Source: Gemmatimonadaceae bacterium
GTDB lineage: Bacteria; Gemmatimonadota; Gemmatimonadetes; Gemmatimonadales; Gemmatimonadaceae
Length of the DNA: 64,000 bases
NCBI GenBank assembly: GCA_013813715.1
Contig: JACCRF010000148.1
Location: 6,562 to 70,561, forward strand
Direction of reading: 5' to 3'
The notes under the pieces are model-generated. The model made no database searches. It worked only from the letters and a program-made list of their open reading frames with translations, and had not been told where the DNA came from. Below are positions 8,477 through 34,521 of this stretch, piece after piece; the first letter of the stretch is position 1, and each line of letters begins with the position of its first letter. Both the position numbers and the translations under genes were made by a program.

Positions 8477-8794
8477 TGACGGTGTCCTCTCGTGGTGCAG
8501 GGAACGGCGAACGCGGTCTGATTCCGCGGGCGGAGCCCGGCGTCGGGCGTACAACGCATTGATAATGTCGAAAAACGTCGCGCGTCGTCAGGTGCGAGCG
8601 AAGGTGAACTGCTTTGTCGGACTGATGCCTCGAAACGTGGGCGAGACCGAAGCGGCGCGGCACTTCGTTCGGCCCAGGGAGGCGGGCTCGGCACAACGCC
8701 GCGGAGTATAGGGCACCTCCGCTATCGCCGCCTGCCAGCGCTATGCATATTGGGTCGGCTGCCGCCGCCTTCTCAGGCAATTCCACCACTGCCC

Positions 8795-9526
8795 ATGTCT
8801 CCCTTTCTCGCGGAATTCGTCGGCACCACGATTCTGATCGTGCTCGGCAACGGCGTGGTCGCAAATGTCGTGCTGCACCAAACCAAGGGGTACAACTCCG
8901 GTTGGATCGTTGTCACCGGTGGCTGGGCTTGCGCCGTGACGATCGCCGTCTACTGCGTTGGCAGCATCAGCGGTGCGCATCTCAATCCGGCAGTGACGAT
9001 CGGGTTGGCGTCGATAGGAACGTTCGCGTGGGCGAAGGTGCCGATGTATCTCGCTGCACAACTGGCCGGTGGAGTAGCTGGCGGCGTCGTCGTGTGGCTC
9101 GTGTATCTGCCACACTGGAGCGTGACGTCGGATCCGGACGCGAAGCTCGCCGTCTTCTCGACGGGACCAGCGATCAGGCAGCCGATCCCCAACCTGATCG
9201 CGGAGACCATCGGCACCTTTGTCTTGGTGCTCGCGCTGTCGGCGGTGCTCTCGCCCAGCAACTTCGTGCCCGGTTCCGACCTGGCGAAAGGGTTCGGCCC
9301 GGTACTGGTCGGCCTGATCGTCTGGGCCATTGGACTGTCGTTGGGTGGACCCACCGGTTACGCGATCAATCCCGCACGCGACCTGGGACCTCGCATTGCC
9401 CACGCCCTCCTGCCGATCCCCGGAAAAGGTAGCTCCGACTGGGGCTACGCCTGGATCCCCGTGGTGGGGCCGGTGACCGGCGGTGTGCTCGGCGCATGGC
9501 TCTACAAAATCATGTGGGTACTCTGA
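8795..9526 (+). CDS. glpF: Glycerol uptake facilitator (MIP aquaglyceroporin)
   Basis: Two NPA motifs ([17 protein letters not shown]); directly upstream of glycerol kinase. Confidence 0.95.
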
Positions 9527-11010
9527 TGAAGCACATTCTCGCGCTCGACCAGGGCACGACCAGCTCGCGGGCCATCCTCTTCGATCGCGCGGGCGGCATC
9601 GTCGCCGTCGCACAGAAGGAATTCCCACAGATCTTTCCGAAGCCCGGTTGGGTGGAGCACGACCCACGCGACATCTGGTCGACGCAAGCCGGCGTGGCGG
9701 CGGAGGTCCTGCAGAGGGCCGATGTCACAGCCGCAGATGTCGCCGCGATCGGGATCACGAATCAGCGCGAGACCGCAGTCGTCTGGAACCGCGCGACGGG
9801 ACAGCCGATTTGCAACGCCATCGTCTGGCAGGATCGGCGTACTGCATCCATCTGTGACCGGCTGAAGGCTAGGAAGCTGGATCGCGTGATCCGCAGGAAG
9901 ACCGGCCTCGTGATCGATGCGTATTTCTCCGCGACGAAGGTCCAGTGGATTCTTCAGAACGTGAAGGACGCCCGAGCCAAGGCGAAGGCGGGAGAGCTGG
10001 CGTTCGGCACCGTGGACTCATGGCTCGTCTGGAATCTCACGGGCGGCAGGGTTCATGTCACTGATGCCAGTAATGCCTCGCGAACGATGCTCTACAACAT
10101 CGCGAAGGGTGAATGGGACGACGAGCTGCTGGCGATCTTCGGCGTGCCGCGCTCGATGCTGCCTGAGGTGCGGTCGTCGAGCGAGGTGTATGGCGAGAGC
10201 ACGCTCTTGGGCGCCTCCATTCCGATCGCCGGCATTGCCGGCGACCAGCAGGCGGCCCTCTTCGGGCAAGTGTGCACGAAGCCGGGCATGGTGAAGAACA
10301 CGTACGGCACTGGCTGCTTCATGCTCATGAACACGGGCACGAAACCGATCGCCTCGAAGAACAACCTGCTCACGACGGTGGCGTGGCGGATCGGCACCCG
10401 CACCGAGTATGCGCTCGAGGGCAGCATCTTCATCGCGGGCGCCGTTGTGCAGTGGCTGCGTGACGGCCTCGACATGATCCGCTCGTCGGCGGACGTCGAG
10501 GCGCTCGCCGCGAGCGTGCCGGACACCGGCGGCGTCTATCTCGTGCCCGCCTTCGCCGGACTCGGAGCGCCGCACTGGGATCAGTATGCGCGCGGAACAA
10601 TCGTCGGCTTGACGCGAGGCACCACGAAAGCGCACCTGGCGCGAGCCGCACTCGAGGGCATCGCCCTGCAAGTGATGGACGTCCTCAAGGCGATGGAGGC
10701 CGACGCAGGCATCGAGCTCAAGGAGCTCCGCGTAGACGGCGGAGCCTGCGCCAACGATCTCCTCATGCAGTTGCAGGCCGATCTGCTGAGTGTGCCTGTC
10801 GTCCGCCCGAAGGTCGCCGAGACGACCGCGCTGGGTGCGGCCTATCTCGCGGGGCTCGCGGTGGGATACTGGAAGAGTCAGGCCGATATCGCTCGGCAGT
10901 GGCAGGCTGACAGGCGCTTCAAGCCTCGGATGAAACCGGCCGCGAGGAATCAGCTTGCCGCGGGTTGGGTCAAGGCGCTGAGCCGGGCAAAGGGGTGGGA
11001 GGATCCATAA
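9526..11010 (+). CDS. glpK: Glycerol kinase
   Basis: [50 protein letters not shown]; TGATG overlap with glpF. Confidence 0.97.
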
Positions 11011-11178
11011 CGGGATATCGCGACCAGCCAACTTTCCTTTCACTCATTTTACGCTCGTCCACGACGTCACGAGCTGCGCGCCGGCCGCGTGAGCCCCATG
11101 ATGTGCCGCGACTCCTTGGCGCGGACTCGGTGGGAAGGCTGGAGACCAACTCGGGCATGCCGCGCCTCAGCCTCGAAA

Positions 11179-11886
11179 TCACCGCGCGAGCGCCGCGTCG
11201 TGGATCATGGGAGCCGGTTCGGTTGGACGTATCTCCGAAGGAGTAAGGCTGGCGGCTCTCGTCACCGACTCCCGAACAGCGTCGCGAATGCGGTCGAACT
11301 GTCCTGATGCGATCCAGTCCGGCTGCGCCATCCAAGACCCCCCACACGCGACGACGTTCTTGAGAGGAAGATAGCTCTCGAAGTTTGCGGCAGTGAGCCC
11401 ACCGCTGGGATTGAATTCGACACCAGCGAACGGCCCGGACAGCAACTGGAGATACGCGACGCCACCCAGCGTCTCAATCGGCCACAACTTGAGCAGCTTG
11501 AGTCCCGCCTCGAGCGCGGCTTCGATCTCGGTTGCAGTGGCGACTCCGGGGTAAACGGGAACGTCGTATTCGAGGCAGTAGTCAACGACTGCGCGATTGA
11601 ATCCCGGGGATATGACGAACTGTGCTCCAGCATCCCTTACCTGTGCGGCTTGCGCGACGTTGAGCACCGTCCCGGCGCCAGCCAGCATTTCGGGCCGCGT
11701 CTGCGAGATGGCGCGCAGTGATTCCAACGCCCCAGGAGTGCGAAGAGTCACCTCGGCAATCGGCAGCCCGCCGTCCAGCAGCGCGCTCGCGAGCGGCACC
11801 GCTTTCTTCGGGTCGTCGATCACTATCACCGGAATGATGCGCGCGTGCCGGAGCGCTGCTGTCATCGCCGACTGCCGGACGCTCAT
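11179..11886 (-). CDS. eda: KDPG/KHG aldolase
   Basis: EVTLRTP, GAGTV, FVISPG, PGVAT, KLWP, FNPSGG, VACGGSW; SD GGAGG before ATG 11886. Confidence 0.93.
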   Translation of the reverse strand: MSVRQSAMTAALRHARIIPVIVIDDPKKAVPLASALLDGGLPIAEVTLRTPGALESLRAISQTRPEMLAGAGTVLNVAQAAQVRDAGAQFVISPGFNRAVVDYCLEYDVPVYPGVATATEIEAALEAGLKLLKLWPIETLGGVAYLQLLSGPFAGVEFNPSGGLTAANFESYLPLKNVVACGGSWMAQPDWIASGQFDRIRDAVRESVTRAASLTPSEIRPTEPAPMIHDAALAR

Positions 11887-28767: not shown

Positions 28768-30237
28768 ATGTCACCTCTTCGCTCTCGTATTGCGCTGTTG
28801 CCATTCGCCGCGTTCGCGGCTTCGTCCGATCTCGCCGCGCAGCGGCCGGGAAGACCCCTGATAGAAAATGTCGCTCGAGCGATGGGCGGACGCGATCGCG
28901 TTCTCGCCGTCCGGACGCTCGTCATCGAGGGCACGGGAGACAACTTCAACCTCGGTCAGAACCCCTCCCCGGAGGCGGTGCTTCCAAGGTACGAGGTGAC
29001 GGAATTCCGCCGGTCGATCGATTTCGCCGGACGGCGGTGGCTTCAGGACCAGACCCGCGTGCCGCGCTTCACCACCGGCAACACCGCGCCTCAACGCCAG
29101 CGCAGCGGATATGACAGCGTCGCCTTCAACATTGCCGCCGATGGAACGGTGGCCCGCGGATCCGCGCGCGCCGACGTTGACCGCGCGAACGAGCTCCTCC
29201 ACCATCCCATCGGATTCATCCAGGCTGCTCTCGCGCCAGGCGTGGAGCTGACCGAACATGCGCGGGTCTCCGGCCTTCGCCACGTTCGGATGAATGCGGG
29301 CGGCAACAAGCTCGCGATGTTCATCGAACCGCGTACCAGCCTGCCCGTGCGCATCGAGAAGGTCGGAGCGCACGCGATGCTCGGAGACGTCGTAATCGAA
29401 ACCCGGATGTCCGATTGGCGCATGGTAGACGGCATCCGTCTGCCGATGCGAATCGCTCAGTGGATCGACGGTCGATGGCCGCTTTCCGATCTGCAGCTCA
29501 AGTCGGCGAGCTTGAACGCCACCTTGAGTGACATAGGCGTCACGCCCGAAGTAAGGGCGGCTCAGCCGCCGGCGGTGGCGGTGAACGTGACGGCCGATTC
29601 GATTGCTCCTGGCGTGTGGTATCTCACAGGGGGATCACACCACAGCGTTGCGATAGAAATGCGCGACCACCTCGTGCTTGTCGAGGCGCCCTTGAGCGAT
29701 GCGCGCACTCTAGCCGTGATCCGGAAGGCGCGCGAGCTGCGGCCCGACAAACCGCTGCGTTCGGTAATCAACACGCATCATCACTTCGACCATGCCGGCG
29801 GCATTCGCGCGGCGATCGCCGAAGGGCTGACGGTGGTCACACACGCCGGTAACGCGAGGTTCTTCGAGGGTCTCGCGCGGCGCCGGCACTTCGTCGTCGA
29901 AGATGCGCTGGCGAAATCACCGCGGCCGGCGCGCATCGAGAGGGTTGAAGGAAAACGAATTCTGACAGACGGCTCGCGGTCGGTCGAGATCCACCACATC
30001 AGCGGCAACCCCCACGCTGGCACGTTCCTGATGATTTACCTGCCCGCCGAGCGGATTCTCATTGAAGCCGACGCGTACAATCCGCCTGCGGCGAACACGA
30101 CGCCAGGCCCGGCACCGTTCGCGCCGAATCTCGTCGAGAACATCGACAGGCTCGGGCTGCGCGTGGATCGTGTCGTGCCAATTCACGGTGGGATCTTCAC
30201 GATGGGCGATCTTCGGGCTGCGGCACTGCGCAAATAA
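28768..30237 (+). CDS. Secreted MBL-fold metallo-hydrolase
   Basis: Signal peptide; INTHHHFDHAGG metal motif, HAGTFLMIYLP, PIHG. Confidence 0.87.
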   Translation: MSPLRSRIALLPFAAFAASSDLAAQRPGRPLIENVARAMGGRDRVLAVRTLVIEGTGDNFNLGQNPSPEAVLPRYEVTEFRRSIDFAGRRWLQDQTRVPRFTTGNTAPQRQRSGYDSVAFNIAADGTVARGSARADVDRANELLHHPIGFIQAALAPGVELTEHARVSGLRHVRMNAGGNKLAMFIEPRTSLPVRIEKVGAHAMLGDVVIETRMSDWRMVDGIRLPMRIAQWIDGRWPLSDLQLKSASLNATLSDIGVTPEVRAAQPPAVAVNVTADSIAPGVWYLTGGSHHSVAIEMRDHLVLVEAPLSDARTLAVIRKARELRPDKPLRSVINTHHHFDHAGGIRAAIAEGLTVVTHAGNARFFEGLARRRHFVVEDALAKSPRPARIERVEGKRILTDGSRSVEIHHISGNPHAGTFLMIYLPAERILIEADAYNPPAANTTPGPAPFAPNLVENIDRLGLRVDRVVPIHGGIFTMGDLRAAALRK

Positions 30238-30333: not shown

Positions 30334-31731
30334 TCAGGGAATCGGCCGCGGTCTTGGCCACGGCCAGGGCCAGGGATCGGGCGAGCGGCCCCCCGCCAAG
30401 CCGCGAATAGCGGCTTCGCGGACCTGCGGATCGCCCGACTCCAGAAGATCGGTCAACGCGGCCACCGATCGTTCTCCCGATTTCATCAGGGCTCGGATGA
30501 GACCGCGACGAACCCTGTCGCTTTTTTCCTGACGAAGCGCGGTGCGAATTGCGGGAAGACCGGCGCTGTCGGCGATCTGCCCGAGTGCCCACGCCGCCTT
30601 GAGCCGCGTGTCCTCGCTATCGTCGCGCAACACCTGAAACAGCGCGGCCGGTGCTCTGCCGCCACGCTGGAGTTGCCCGATCGCCCATGCCGCCGTACCG
30701 CGGACCCGCGAACTGCGGTCGCTGCCGGCAATCGCGGAGAGAGCATCAACCGCTGCCCGGTCTTCGACCTGCGCGATTGCCCACACCGCGGTTTCGCGGA
30801 CTCGGTCGTCTGCGTCACGCCGCCCTGCCGCGGCGAGGGCGGCTGACGCGCCGCGACTCTCGATACTACCCAGCGCCCACGCCGCCATTTCACGCACGCG
30901 CGGATCGCGGTCCTGGGCGAGAACGCCGCTCAGCGCCTCGACACCTTCTCGCGCTTCGAGCTTACCGAGAGCCCATGCGGCCGCTCGCCGAACCGACGCC
31001 GCGTCGTCCTGCCGGATTACTCGGATGAGCGCCGACGTAGCGATCGTCGAGTCGATTCTGCCCGCTGCGATGACTGCCGCCTCGCGTACCTTCGCTTCGC
31101 TGTCGCGAAAAAGTTCGAGCAGCGGTGAAAGCGCGCGTCCGGCTTCCATTCGACCGAGCGCCCACGCCGAGTTCGCGCGCACGCCTGTGACTCCATCACG
31201 CAACGCGCGGAGGAGGGGTTCGACGGCTGCCGCCGGCTCGACGATTCCGAGCCCAAGTGCCGCGATCTCGCGCAGCGGAGCCGACGACGACGCGAGACGA
31301 GCGATGAGGCCGCTGGCCACACTCTCGTTCCTGCTGCGTCCCAGCACACGCACTGACAGCTCGCGCACGCATGCATCTTCCGACCCCAGACCTTCGAGCA
31401 ACAGCTCGATGTCCGCCTGGGAAAGGCCCGAACCCTCGAAATCATCGCCTCGATTCGAGACTGCTGCCGCGAGCGGCGTCGAGGGCGCGTCGCTCCAGTC
31501 GCCCCATCCGAAACCCCGCACCGCCTGCGATGCGAGCGAACAGATCATTGCCGGCGCACCGCGCGCCGATGTGAGCAGCGCTCGGACGTCGAGCGGCGCG
31601 CGATCGTCGCTCGGGCCGCGTGCCTCCATCATCGCACTCTCTGCAGGAGCGACGGAGCCACTCGCGAAAATCGCGGGTCCTTCGGTGGTCAGCATAACAG
31701 CAGCTACTATCAATCCGGTTGTTCCGAACAT
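30334..31731 (-). CDS. Secreted HEAT-repeat protein (about 11 repeats) with PWPWPWPRPRPIP tail
   Basis: Repeats of the form L..L.D.D..VR..AAWALG; hydrophobic N-terminus; SD GAGGA before ATG 31731 (ATG 31755 is an alternative). Confidence 0.88.
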   Translation of the reverse strand: MFGTTGLIVAAVMLTTEGPAIFASGSVAPAESAMMEARGPSDDRAPLDVRALLTSARGAPAMICSLASQAVRGFGWGDWSDAPSTPLAAAVSNRGDDFEGSGLSQADIELLLEGLGSEDACVRELSVRVLGRSRNESVASGLIARLASSSAPLREIAALGLGIVEPAAAVEPLLRALRDGVTGVRANSAWALGRMEAGRALSPLLELFRDSEAKVREAAVIAAGRIDSTIATSALIRVIRQDDAASVRRAAAWALGKLEAREGVEALSGVLAQDRDPRVREMAAWALGSIESRGASAALAAAGRRDADDRVRETAVWAIAQVEDRAAVDALSAIAGSDRSSRVRGTAAWAIGQLQRGGRAPAALFQVLRDDSEDTRLKAAWALGQIADSAGLPAIRTALRQEKSDRVRRGLIRALMKSGERSVAALTDLLESGDPQVREAAIRGLAGGRSPDPWPWPWPRPRPIP

Positions 31732-31779
31732 GATGATTCCTCGCGAGTGGCGCATCCTGGGCTATCAGGGATAAGGGTA

Positions 31780-31795
31780 AGTTGAAAAATCAGCA
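31780..31795. promoter_or_regulatory. Putative BlaI-family operator (AGTTGAAAAATCAGCA)
   Basis: 14/16 identical to the reverse complement of the 34488-34503 site; lies just upstream of the HEAT gene. Confidence 0.55.
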
Positions 31796-31802
31796 CTAAG
31801 CT

Positions 31803-31841
31803 CCAAAGAACGGGCGCGCCGCAAGCATCTCGGCGCGCCCG
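31803..31841 (-). terminator. Intrinsic terminator after the M56 gene
   Basis: Perfect 11-bp stem CGGGCGCGCCG/CGGCGCGCCCG with a 9-nt loop, followed by TTCTTT on the minus strand. Confidence 0.75.
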
Positions 31842-31856
31842 GTTAGAACGCGCTGC

Positions 31857-34015
31857 TCAGGGGAACGGGCGCGGTTCCGGCCACGGCCATGGCCACGGAC
31901 CAGCCGCATTCCCGCCGGCCAGTGCGCGAACGGCCATCGTGCGAATCCGCTGATCGCGTGAATCAAGCAACCCTCGAATCGCGTCGACCGAATGTTCCCC
32001 GATCGCCGCGAGCGCGCGGATGTAAGCGAGCTGAAGATCCTTGTCTGTCTCGATGCGCAAGGCGGCGTCGAGTGCGGCAACCGTGTTGCGATCCTCGATC
32101 TGGTAGAGAGCCCACGCCGCGAGCTCGCGCGCCTTCGGATCGCGATCCTTGAGCATGTCCACCAATGGACGCGGCGCCTCGCGGGGTTCGACGTGCCCGA
32201 GCGCCCATGCAGCGCGGCGGCGAACCGATACGTCCGCGTCGCCGAGTGCAGCCGCGAGCGCCGCTGTAGCATCGCGGTCGCCCACATGCCCAAGCGCCCA
32301 CGCGGCGATGCCGCGAACCTTTGGTTCGGAATCTCCGCGAAGCGCCGCCGACAGCGATTCTATCACTGTTGAATTCCCGTCCTCGCAATTCGACATCGCC
32401 CATGCCGCCATCTCACGAACGGAAGCATTTGCGTCGCGCCGAAGCGCGCTCGACAATGCGGTGATCGCAACCGGCGACTCGGCGAATTCGGACAATCCCC
32501 ACGCCGCAATACGGCGGAGCGATGCACTCGTATCGCTGCGCAGCACGTTCGCGAGTAGAACCGGCCGGTCGTCGGCACGTCCCTGCGCCGAGCGCGCGCT
32601 GGCGCTTTCGTTCAGCCGCTGAAACGCCGCAGCAACCTGGTCTGTCAGCTTGGTTCTAGCGACCTCTCGATTTGTCTCTGGGGCAACGGTCTCTGTCGCC
32701 TGCGTGACGTTCGGAACGATTCCTGCGCCGACCTTCGGCGCGCCTGGCTTCAGCGCGACAGCCGCATCCGACTTTGCTTCGACCATCGCGTCGTCCTTCG
32801 AATCGGGAACATCTGCGGGAAGCGAATGATCGGGGGCGCTCGGCGTACCGAGCTCGATGTTCGTCGCAATCGTCTCGCTGCCCCGATCGGCGCGCGGAGC
32901 CGGCGCGGCCGCGCCGACGACGATTGATATCAAGGCCAGCGATGCGATCAGCGCTGCCGACTGACGGCGGCCAGGACTCGAGTGGCGGAGCTCGGGGTCG
33001 AGAATCGCGAGCATGCGGCCCTCGAACTCCTTGCGGCGAGCCATTGCAAGCGCGACGGCCGGAGTTGTGTCGCGCCTCACCGATGTCACGATGTCCAGGA
33101 GATGCTCGGCGTAGTCACTGGCGCGCGCCCCGCAGGCGAGCGCGAGGTCGTCGCAGGCTCGCTCGCTCTCGGAGCGAAGCTGCTTCGCGGCGGTCCACAC
33201 AAGCGGATGGAACCAGTATAGCGCGCACGCAATGCGTCCCAGGGTATGTCCGACGAGATCGTGACGCCGGACGTGCGCCAGTTCGTGCAGCAGCACCGCG
33301 CGGCGGCGATCGGGGCTCCACGCATCACACTCGGCCGGCAGCACGATCGTGGGCTGAAACAGTCCGCAAGCGAACGGCATCTTCGCCTCCTCGCTGCGGA
33401 GCAGGCGCGGTGGTTCGTCGAGGGATAGCCGGTCGGAGACCTCCCACAGTGGCGTGAGCCAGTCCTGGGTCTCGAGCGGCCGTGCTGCGCGAATGATCCG
33501 CCGAACAGCTAGTGCACTATAGCCAAGCGACCCGGTGATGATGGCGACAACGCCTGCCCACAGGATTACCAGCACAGCGAACGGGGTCAGCGAGCGTACA
33601 CGGTCGAGAACGTTCCAGCTTCCGGGTACATCGCGGGCGTCGCCGGAGAGTTTGGTAGCATCGGCGACACCGTTGGCACGCGCAGGTGCTGAGGTCGCCG
33701 CGCCCGGCGGGTTTTCGTCGACGGTTTTTCGGAAGCGGAGGATTCGTTCAATTGCGAGCCAGCTGGCAACGCGGCGACCACCGGCGGAAGAACCTCGAGA
33801 CGAAGTGGTGCCCACGCCGAGAGCGCCGGAACGAGGAGCAGAGCTCCGAGCGTGACCAGCCAGACGAGGTGCCGCGCCCCTGCCGACGCACGCCGCATCG
33901 CGAGAGTGATTCCAAGCGCGGCGAGCAGAATCACCGTTGCCTTCGCCAGCAGGATCACCATCGATACGTTGAACGACGGGAACGCGATCAGATCGGCGAG
34001 ATTTGCCTGTATCAT
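31857..34015 (-). CDS. BlaR1-like M56 metallopeptidase with C-terminal HEAT repeats and PWPWPWPEPRPFP tail; 1-nt frameshift at 33725-33729
   Basis: SD GGAGGT before ATG 34015; N-terminal TMs (ARHLVWL) are in one frame, while PFACGLFQPTIVLP, HELAH, ESERACD and 7 HEAT repeats are in another. One extra A in the A5 run gives a 719-aa protein. Confidence 0.85.
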
Positions 34016-34020
34016 CTGAT

Positions 34021-34428
34021 TTACCTCCCGCTCTGCCGAGCGCGGCGGATCGTGTCGCGAAGCCGCTTGACCTCGGCATCGTTGATATCGACGTCGGACA
34101 TCCTGAGGAGGGCTGTCACTGCCTGCTCCGGTGAGTCAGCGAAATAGGTTCGGACAACGTGAGCCAGCACGTCGTCGCGCGCTCTCTCGGTGGATTCGGC
34201 AGGGTAGTACACGTAGCGGGGGCCGTCTTCCTTATGCCGTATCAACGCCTTCTCACCGAGGATGCGGAGAACCGATCGCACGGCGGAGTATGTCGGCGGA
34301 TCAGGGAGGTCGCCCATGATCTCGGCGACCGTCGCGCCGTTCCGCCGGTGGAGGATGTCCATGACCTGTCGTTCGCGGCGCGAGAGTGCAGGCGAGTCGG
34401 TCTTGTTCTTCAGGAGAGCGGAGGCCAT
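34021..34428 (-). CDS. BlaI/MecI/CopY-family transcriptional repressor
   Basis: LSRRERQVMDIL, TYSAVRSVLRILGEKALI..DGPRYVY, VVRTYFADS. Confidence 0.93.
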   Translation of the reverse strand: MASALLKNKTDSPALSRRERQVMDILHRRNGATVAEIMGDLPDPPTYSAVRSVLRILGEKALIRHKEDGPRYVYYPAESTERARDDVLAHVVRTYFADSPEQAVTALLRMSDVDINDAEVKRLRDTIRRARQSGR

Positions 34429-34470
34429 CGGAATCGGGTTGGGGATTATGAGATCGAAGCTGGCGGATGA

Positions 34471-34521
34471 TGCTGAAATATCACCCGTGCTGAATTTTCA
34501 ACAGCAACCCCCGATTGTCAA
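34471..34521. promoter_or_regulatory. Two operator-like sites (TGCTGAAATATCACCC, TGCTGAATTTTCAACA) plus a TTGACA -35 for blaI
   Basis: Sites at 34471-34486 and 34488-34503, 17 bp apart; TTGACA on the minus strand at 34521-34516 places the -10 inside site 2. Confidence 0.55.

Follow-up and report, generated by a model that had tools for sequence, protein, structure and literature searches.

A stretch of 64,000 nt from a Gemmatimonadaceae bacterium (contig JACCRF010000148.1, positions 6,562 to 70,561; hereafter the window) carries on its minus strand a trio of co-oriented genes, recognised by their open reading frames (ORFs) and Pfam domains: blaI, a gene joining an M56 protease to HEAT repeats (M56-HEAT), and a gene for a soluble HEAT protein. 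Comparison with related genomes gives good support to the view that these genes form a BlaI/M56 module which would control a secreted paralog of its own sensor, and we put at about 0.6 the probability that it is a non-canonical BlaI/BlaR1-type regulated-proteolysis switch of the Gemmatimonadales. The evidence for this lies in the extended likeness of sensor and putative target, in the conservation of the trio as a unit, and in a rare palindrome found both at the blaI promoter and before the soluble HEAT gene. The original prediction for this locus, made without database searches, had described a BlaI repressor, an M56 sensor and a secreted HEAT protein as one circuit.

Two paralogous HEAT proteins in a conserved gene trio

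The blaI gene (34428..34021) encodes a 135-aa winged-helix repressor of the BlaI/MecI/CopY family, whose predicted identity is borne out by a full-length Penicillinase_R domain (PF03965, E 5.5e-22, 78.7 bits against a cut-off of 22.6, profile positions 1-114 of 115), and its orthologs are 64-89% identical across all loci. The M56 gene starts 5 nt past the blaI stop, behind a GGGAGG Shine-Dalgarno sequence, and blaI and the four-transmembrane (4-TM) M56 zinc protease are predicted to be translationally coupled. Both pieces of the M56 gene together span 34015..31857 and encode a protease with a seven-repeat HEAT ectodomain. Within it, a 740-aa ORF (34079..31857) matches Peptidase_M56 (PF05569, E 1.6e-33, 116.6 bits) and then HEAT_2, and the zinc site HELAHVRRHD, comprising HEXXH and a downstream Asp, is intact at 33287..33258. 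The M56 protease was named correctly by the original prediction, which missed, however, that the gene is not one open frame, as described below.

Joining the two frames yields a 719-aa protein of the classical BlaR1 type in its layout, consisting of TM1, TM2, a periplasmic loop, TM3, the HELAHVRRHD protease, TM4, an acidic linker and the HEAT domain, with positively charged residues at the cytoplasmic sides of the TM helices. By the positive-inside rule, the protease site is predicted to be cytoplasmic and the C-terminal HEAT domain periplasmic. The 3' piece of the gene contributes TM3 (33581..33519), TM4 (32960..32904), which the acidic linker follows, the HEAT ectodomain (32573..31860) and, at its end, a C-terminal tail (PWPWPWPEPRPFP, 31898..31860). 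In Pfam, only HEAT-family domains were found C-terminal to TM4 (HEAT_2, E 6.6e-30), and the motif count returned the seven repeats expected for the sensor region. A penicillin-binding sensor domain was not found, as the NCBIfam model blaR1_generic scored 93 bits against a cut-off of 400 and matched the N-terminal half only. In intact orthologs, a single chain with four TM helices has its protease loop on the inner and its sensor on the outer side, as in BlaR1, whereas in the window TM1-TM2 and TM3-TM4 are in different frames. The M56-HEAT fusion itself is already annotated in databases, under the label 'signal transducer with metallopeptidase domain/HEAT repeat protein', and BlaI and the sensor have diverged so far that a phmmer search against PDB sequences found no solved relative of BlaI or BlaR1.

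The soluble HEAT gene (31755..30334) starts 101 nt past the M56 stop and encodes 473 aa with a signal-peptide-like N-terminus, followed by HEAT-type repeats only (Pfam HEAT_2, E 1.3e-51). The prediction of a secreted 11-HEAT neighbour agrees with the motif count of 11 repeats and with the AlphaFold2 (AF2) model, which contains 11 helix pairs at a predicted local distance difference test score (pLDDT) above 90, the whole model having a pLDDT of 82 and a predicted template modelling score (pTM) of 0.79. Ortholog alignment revealed a conserved N-domain with two invariant Cys (C72, C129) and, together with the signal-peptide-like N-terminus, these cysteines fit export of the protein. Foldseek placed the solenoid closest to binder scaffolds, namely alphaRep and importin-alpha, with TM-scores of 0.85-0.92 on the target, and the NCBIfam lyase models all scored far below their cut-offs against these HEAT proteins.

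The sensor ectodomain and repeats 5-11 of the soluble protein share 41% identity over 227 aa (composition-adjusted E 2e-31), in register to the C-terminus, so that the likeness is real and larger than the about 55 aa claimed at first. At E<=1e-40, the sensor is the sole other match to the soluble HEAT protein in the genome. Furthermore, both proteins end in a PWPWPWPxPRPxP tail (in the soluble protein at 30375..30337, PWPWPWPRPRPIP) which occurs in no other ORF of the genome, and in a sample of the order DNA encoding PWPWPWP was found mostly at trio loci. The tails keep a distinct form in each of the two proteins, reading GPWPWPWP(E/Q)PRPxP in the sensors and (N/D)PWPWPWPRPRPxP in the soluble proteins of 38 complete loci. 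A maximum-likelihood tree of the last 235 residues separated a sensor clade from a soluble clade, each with 100/100 support and with parallel internal topologies, without any sign of gene conversion between the paralogs. Two fully supported clades with parallel topologies point to one old duplication followed by co-inheritance, and the retention of such unusual identical tails argues for a common docking site or location.

For the analysis of gene neighbourhoods, 80 genomic loci were retrieved, the order being judged where upstream DNA sufficed; 38 loci were complete. The order blaI, M56-HEAT, HEAT gene was found in every locus with enough upstream DNA and, with the same spacing, in 38/38 complete loci, the gaps being about 5 nt between blaI and M56 and about 85 nt between M56 and the HEAT gene. 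The trio is thus conserved together, which was one of the checks proposed with the original prediction. More than 120 orthologs of the soluble HEAT protein (53-67% identity) were found, all from organisms named Gemmatimonad-. In an even sample of the phylum, 39/201 genomes passed E<=1e-40 and about 25 held clear orthologs, which belong to two families of one order plus one outlier. Intact copies exist in a same-genus genome, in a complete single-contig 4.64-Mb genome of the same family (G067) and in Gemmatimonas (L080).

No fourth conserved gene was found around the trio, the best flank cluster being present in only 16 loci and in mixed orientation. In the window, a gene at 28768..30237 on the plus strand, convergent with the HEAT gene, encodes a secreted 489-aa protein of the metallo-beta-lactamase (MBL) superfamily with an HHHFDH motif, and a divergent sulfatase gene also lies beside the trio. 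The MBL-fold gene adjoins the trio in 0/56 related loci with enough downstream DNA and the sulfatase gene in none, and both were rejected as effector candidates on this ground. The statement that no beta-lactamase is present stands insofar as the MBL protein falls far below every curated beta-lactamase cut-off, but it was loosely worded, as the convergent neighbour does belong to the MBL superfamily. An AT-skew dip at 22-24 kb of the window corresponds to ABC-permease genes.

A peculiar arrangement was seen in one metagenome contig (L085:1501-5235), where the M56-HEAT stop reads TTA and the spacer is open in frame. The resulting 1244-aa ORF (P0123) runs through terminator, operator and signal peptide into the soluble HEAT gene; we regard it as more probably due to stop-loss or error than as a functional fusion.

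Predicted operators, terminator and the extent of the regulon

The blaI promoter (34521..34494; TTGACA, 16 nt, GAAAAT) reached a scan score of 10/12 and is overlapped at its -10 by operator O1 (34503..34488, TGTTGAAAATTCAGCA), a perfect TGYTGA-W4-TCARCA palindrome. A tandem second site, O2 (34486..34471, GGGTGATATTTCAGCA), has two mismatches against the palindrome. This layout recurs among the orthologs, where aligned upstream regions gave the consensus TTGACA, a 16-17-nt spacer, TGTTGAAWWTTCAGCA, and then (G/A)GTTGATTTTTCARCA; these two elements are tandem copies of TGYTGA-W4-TCARCA, the first of which covers the -10. Palindromic operators were present at 42/43 orthologous blaI promoters, TTGAC lying no more than 30 nt upstream of the first operator in 42/43 loci, and the second site, with the consensus just given, followed O1 in 36/43.

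The soluble HEAT gene is preceded by a third site, O3 (31795..31780, TGCTGATTTTTCAACT), located 24 nt before its ATG. Between the M56 and HEAT genes, upstream of O3, a terminator-like hairpin at 31841..31805 (CGGGCGCGCCG-N9-CGGCGCGCCCG) is followed by TTCTTT. The M56-HEAT spacer is constant in its build among relatives, comprising a GC-rich hairpin, a T-run and then TGCTGATTTTTCA(A/C)C at a median of 20 nt before the HEAT start. The O3 core TGCTGA-W4-TCA was invariant in 39/46 called spacers, and in at least 6 of the remaining 7 our script had placed the start codon too far upstream, so that the site falls on or beyond it; in the second family of the order, O3 is a perfect palindrome. A hairpin of -19 to -39 kcal/mol occupied the same place in 49/49 spacers with the O3 core, its stem sequences differing while pairing was kept, and 31/49 passed a strict test for stem plus T-run. 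Both the terminator between the units and the operator-like site on each of them, as originally proposed, are therefore recovered.

The palindrome is rare: O1 is one of only three perfect copies in the 3.73-Mb genome and, with up to one mismatch, there are four sites in all (O1, O3 and a tandem pair on contig C10), against 0 for the reversed-pattern control. A perfect site was found in 8/10 relatives, at the blaI promoter, directly before the HEAT gene or at both, together with two extra sites, all controls being 0. Conservation of this rare palindrome at both places argues strongly, on comparative grounds, for a HEAT gene that is transcribed separately from blaI yet controlled by the same repressor. 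A HEAT gene outside BlaI control, which would have undone the original prediction, is hence not what the shared palindrome suggests.

Beyond the trio, the tandem pair on contig C10 (C10:11597-11650) repeats the layout of the blaI promoter, with TTGACA and a 17-nt spacer ahead of two perfect TGYTGA-W4-TCARCA copies in tandem. This promoter reads into a gene (11470..8792) for an 892-aa CBM9_1 plus DUF5916 protein, which is also frameshifted, its signal peptide (MNRTVALAATVAGSASLAIASAARSAFA...) being in another frame than the mature part. The two extra perfect palindromes of the relatives (L083:3997-4012, that is G036:C4:389696, and L084:3984-3999, that is G067:C1:4323583) lie, one 27 nt upstream of a gene for a secreted 492-aa HExxH (M1-like) protein and the other directly upstream of a gene for a 239-aa membrane-anchored protein. 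Because the extra palindromes precede different genes, accessory regulon members differ between genomes, and by this comparison only the trio is the core of the predicted regulon. An O3-type half-site (TGCTGATTTTTCA) at C17:~549 on the minus strand, 16 nt upstream of a small ribbon-helix-helix-like ORF (MEKSRQFVIRIKPDDYELIRQAA...), may be due to chance.

The genome contains three more BlaI/M56 gene pairs (C10:21771-23032, C171:36832-37581 and C144:7641-8668), one of which has a 986-aa M56 open frame. The TGYTGA-W4-TCARCA palindrome occurs at none of them, and each therefore probably has its own operator and signal.

A frameshift in the sensor gene of the window genome

In the window, the M56 gene is split into a 5' piece in frame A (34015..33587), a 142-aa ORF with TM1 and TM2, and a 3' piece in frame B (33696..31857) with TM3, protease, TM4, HEAT ectodomain and tail, the frameshift zone (33728..33697) lying in the variable periplasmic TM2-TM3 loop. 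Accordingly, the 740-aa ORF matches the M56 profile only at positions 93-295, TM1-TM2 (MIQANLADLIAFPSF...) being coded in another frame than TM3, protease and HEAT domain, and the gene call P0122 (572 aa) begins at a GTG within TM3. Residues 1-77 of the 5' piece align with the N-termini of intact orthologs; conservation extends to about 33714, after which the frame is an out-of-frame read-out to the stop. Alignment of the DNA to its nearest unbroken ortholog (P0121/L082, 84% aa identity) showed that frame A holds through GAAAAACCGTCGACG and that frame B resumes at GCGGCGACCTCA, and between these points the window has 14 nt (AAAACCCGCCGGGC) against 12 nt in L082, a net shift of -1/+2 nt. Programmed frameshifting was considered and rejected, because no X XXY YYZ slippery site is present and all orthologs read both M56 parts in a single frame, the shift being unique to the window genome.

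We are inclined, with somewhat better than even confidence, to regard the shift as a real mutation. An independent Logan assembly of run SRR11719865 (contig L081) is 100% identical over 9,719 nt, shift included, and its long k-mer contigs imply accurate reads. A gapped-pattern scan of metagenome contigs for an unshifted allele gave no match. A less probable though serious alternative is an artefact of assembly or sequencing, which would leave the module fully functional in the window organism: the shift sits among short homopolymers, and the remainder of the gene carries no further lesion at 84% identity to the intact ortholog. Other breaks of this kind are also present in this metagenome-assembled genome, namely in the DUF5916 gene on C10 and in a DDAH/amidinotransferase-like gene (C118:2503-3257), which changes frame at reference residue 147, its two parts showing 54% and 52% identity. 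Such breaks are nonetheless infrequent, as a crude survey counted clear frameshifts in about 2/74 genes testable against related loci, these being the M56 gene and the DDAH-like gene. Lesions in two of the few operator-linked genes (M56 and DUF5916) exceed this background, a pattern that looks like decay rather than random error; if the shifts are real, the excess hints at regulon decay in the window lineage. Unless the shift is an assembly error, the switch is probably locked in the repressed state in the window genome.

Proposed mechanism, its rivals and known systems

For intact loci, we propose that BlaI dimers would bind O1, O2 and O3 and thereby repress both units. An envelope signal would engage the HEAT ectodomain and activate the cytoplasmic M56 site; as the solenoid matches the binder scaffolds alphaRep and importin-alpha, this signal would most likely be a protein or peptide. 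Activated M56 could then cleave BlaI and derepress both units, and the secreted paralog might use its HEAT surface and the PWPWPWP tail to compete for the partner of the sensor, resulting in negative feedback or in neutralisation of the inducer. That the secreted HEAT protein binds or titrates the ligand of the sensor, as already conjectured in the original prediction, is pure inference.

Several observations weigh against this picture. With its sensor-protease gene frameshifted, the signalling loop may not operate in the window genome. The module, moreover, is accessory and patchy as judged from its distribution, being found in only about 25/201 sampled genomes and lacking orthologs in two same-genus genomes. 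There are four BlaI paralogs in the genome, and the operator is assigned to the one of the trio by position alone. Further, the promoter scan found no convincing sigma-70 promoter for the HEAT gene, only a weak candidate (TTGnnn overlapping the end of the terminator T-run, 16-17 nt before CAACTT), and O3 could therefore act on read-through transcripts instead. Columns conserved in both paralog clades are, apart from the tail, mostly structural HEAT positions, so that a shared ligand is not demonstrated by them, and the tails reach a pLDDT of only about 50-65 in the AF2 models.

How the two paralogs relate in function can be read in different ways. One possible though less likely reading is a 'decoy receptor', in which the protease-sensor and the secreted ectodomain paralog would compete for one envelope ligand, both being anchored or targeted by the PWPWPWPxPRPxP tail. 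Soluble decoy receptors are familiar from animal cytokine signalling; a bacterial description of such logic was not found in our literature searches. The secreted protein might instead act as a co-receptor, much as LuxP does for LuxQ and TorT for TorS, capturing the signal and docking on the sensor ectodomain by HEAT-HEAT or tail-in-groove contacts, with induction providing positive feedback. We regard this as rather unlikely, even though the two paralogs have stayed paired in every case after their single ancient duplication, their trees running in parallel, and a tail variant of its own is retained by each (EPRP for the sensor, RPRP for the soluble protein). The structural models speak on both sides. 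In the monomer model, the tail of the soluble protein is unstructured and does not dock confidently. A pseudo-fusion model, built on the natural stop-loss read-through of L085 with the alignment registered by 18 in-frame read-through rows, gave two confident solenoids, including the seven sensor repeats, and a pTM of 0.68, somewhat above expectation for one confident domain alone; its tails, however, stayed at a pLDDT of about 55-65, no interface could be read from it, and Foldseek was uninformative. In addition, a gene repressed at rest would be an odd choice for a part needed to sense the first signal.

Alternatively, the soluble HEAT protein may simply be the output of the pathway, for instance a periplasmic scaffold or chaperone, sharing ancestry with the sensor but not its ligand and exerting no feedback. 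The sensor has no counterpart of the four extra N-terminal repeats of the soluble protein or of its conserved Cys-containing N-domain, many surface residues of helix A are specific to one clade, and the accessory operator-bearing genes (CBM9/DUF5916, secreted HExxH peptidase, membrane protein) vary by genome, all of which would suit an effector of this kind. Still, the retention of the PWPWPWPxPRPxP tail by both paralogs argues for a shared binding partner or location, as does the occurrence of PWPWPWP-coding DNA mostly at trio loci in a sample of the order, and we consider this explanation unlikely. Should the decoy-receptor reading prove true, the pathway would tune how sensitive it is by secreting its receptor in soluble form.

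Our model resembles the BlaI/BlaR1 and MecI/MecR1 systems of Staphylococcus aureus and Bacillus licheniformis in several respects: the repressor is of the winged-helix type and its gene is coupled to that of an M56 zinc-protease sensor with 4 TM helices, tandem palindromic operators lie on the repressor promoter while a separately transcribed target has the same operator, and the extracellular sensor domain and the induced protein share a common fold. The proposed feedback is also reminiscent of BlaZ, which removes the inducer of BlaR1. However, a HEAT solenoid here replaces the penicillin-binding (class D-like) sensor domain, the target is no enzyme but a sensor paralog, and the operator is TGYTGA-W4-TCARCA, whereas that of BlaI/MecI is a TACA/TGTA box.

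The module belongs with the non-canonical BlaIR systems, such as CenIR of C. difficile (PMC13492132), PvmSR of P. aeruginosa (bioRxiv 10.64898/2026.08.03.742534) and BlaIR of M. tuberculosis and M. abscessus, which likewise combine BlaI with an M56 sensor without a transpeptidase domain and control envelope or other genes rather than beta-lactamases. Their ectodomains are short, disordered or absent, in contrast to the large folded repeat domain and co-regulated secreted paralog described here. Most M56 sensors lack a penicillin-binding domain and adjoin BlaI, the classical beta-lactam sensor being present in only about 6% of BlaI/BlaR-type switches; a survey of about 15,000 M56 proteins distinguished 254 architectures, the nine that have 100 or more entries not including HEAT (PMC13492132). 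The proposed logic is further comparable to CpxP-CpxA, where a periplasmic protein induced by the pathway damps the sensor by way of its input, as we infer here; CpxP, however, is unrelated in sequence to the CpxA sensor domain, and Cpx is a two-component phosphorelay. As to the fold, PBS-lyase-type HEAT-like proteins and alphaRep have the same 31-33-residue repeat (VRxxAAWALG...) and solenoid, but the known natural members are cytoplasmic, whereas the two of the trio are predicted to be periplasmic and carry a Pro/Trp tail. The literature searched yielded no account of M56-HEAT sensors or of HEAT sensors in the periplasm, and none of the operator, the tail common to both proteins or the secreted paralog regulated along with the sensor.

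It is now recognised that BlaI/BlaR-type switches make up a large class of envelope signalling systems, most of them uncharacterised, and among these the module of the Gemmatimonadales is unusually tractable, as it offers a folded sensor and a tiny, sequence-readable regulon (a 16-bp palindrome with four sites per genome). Intact trios in Gemmatimonas and in the complete genome G067 would seem to make direct tests practicable, provided that the trio is present in a cultured strain. The co-evolving secreted paralog points to possible input handling. More generally, a widespread family whose annotation goes no further than 'HEAT repeat protein' gains a probable role and a probable place in the cell, and a new C-terminal Pro/Trp motif is defined.

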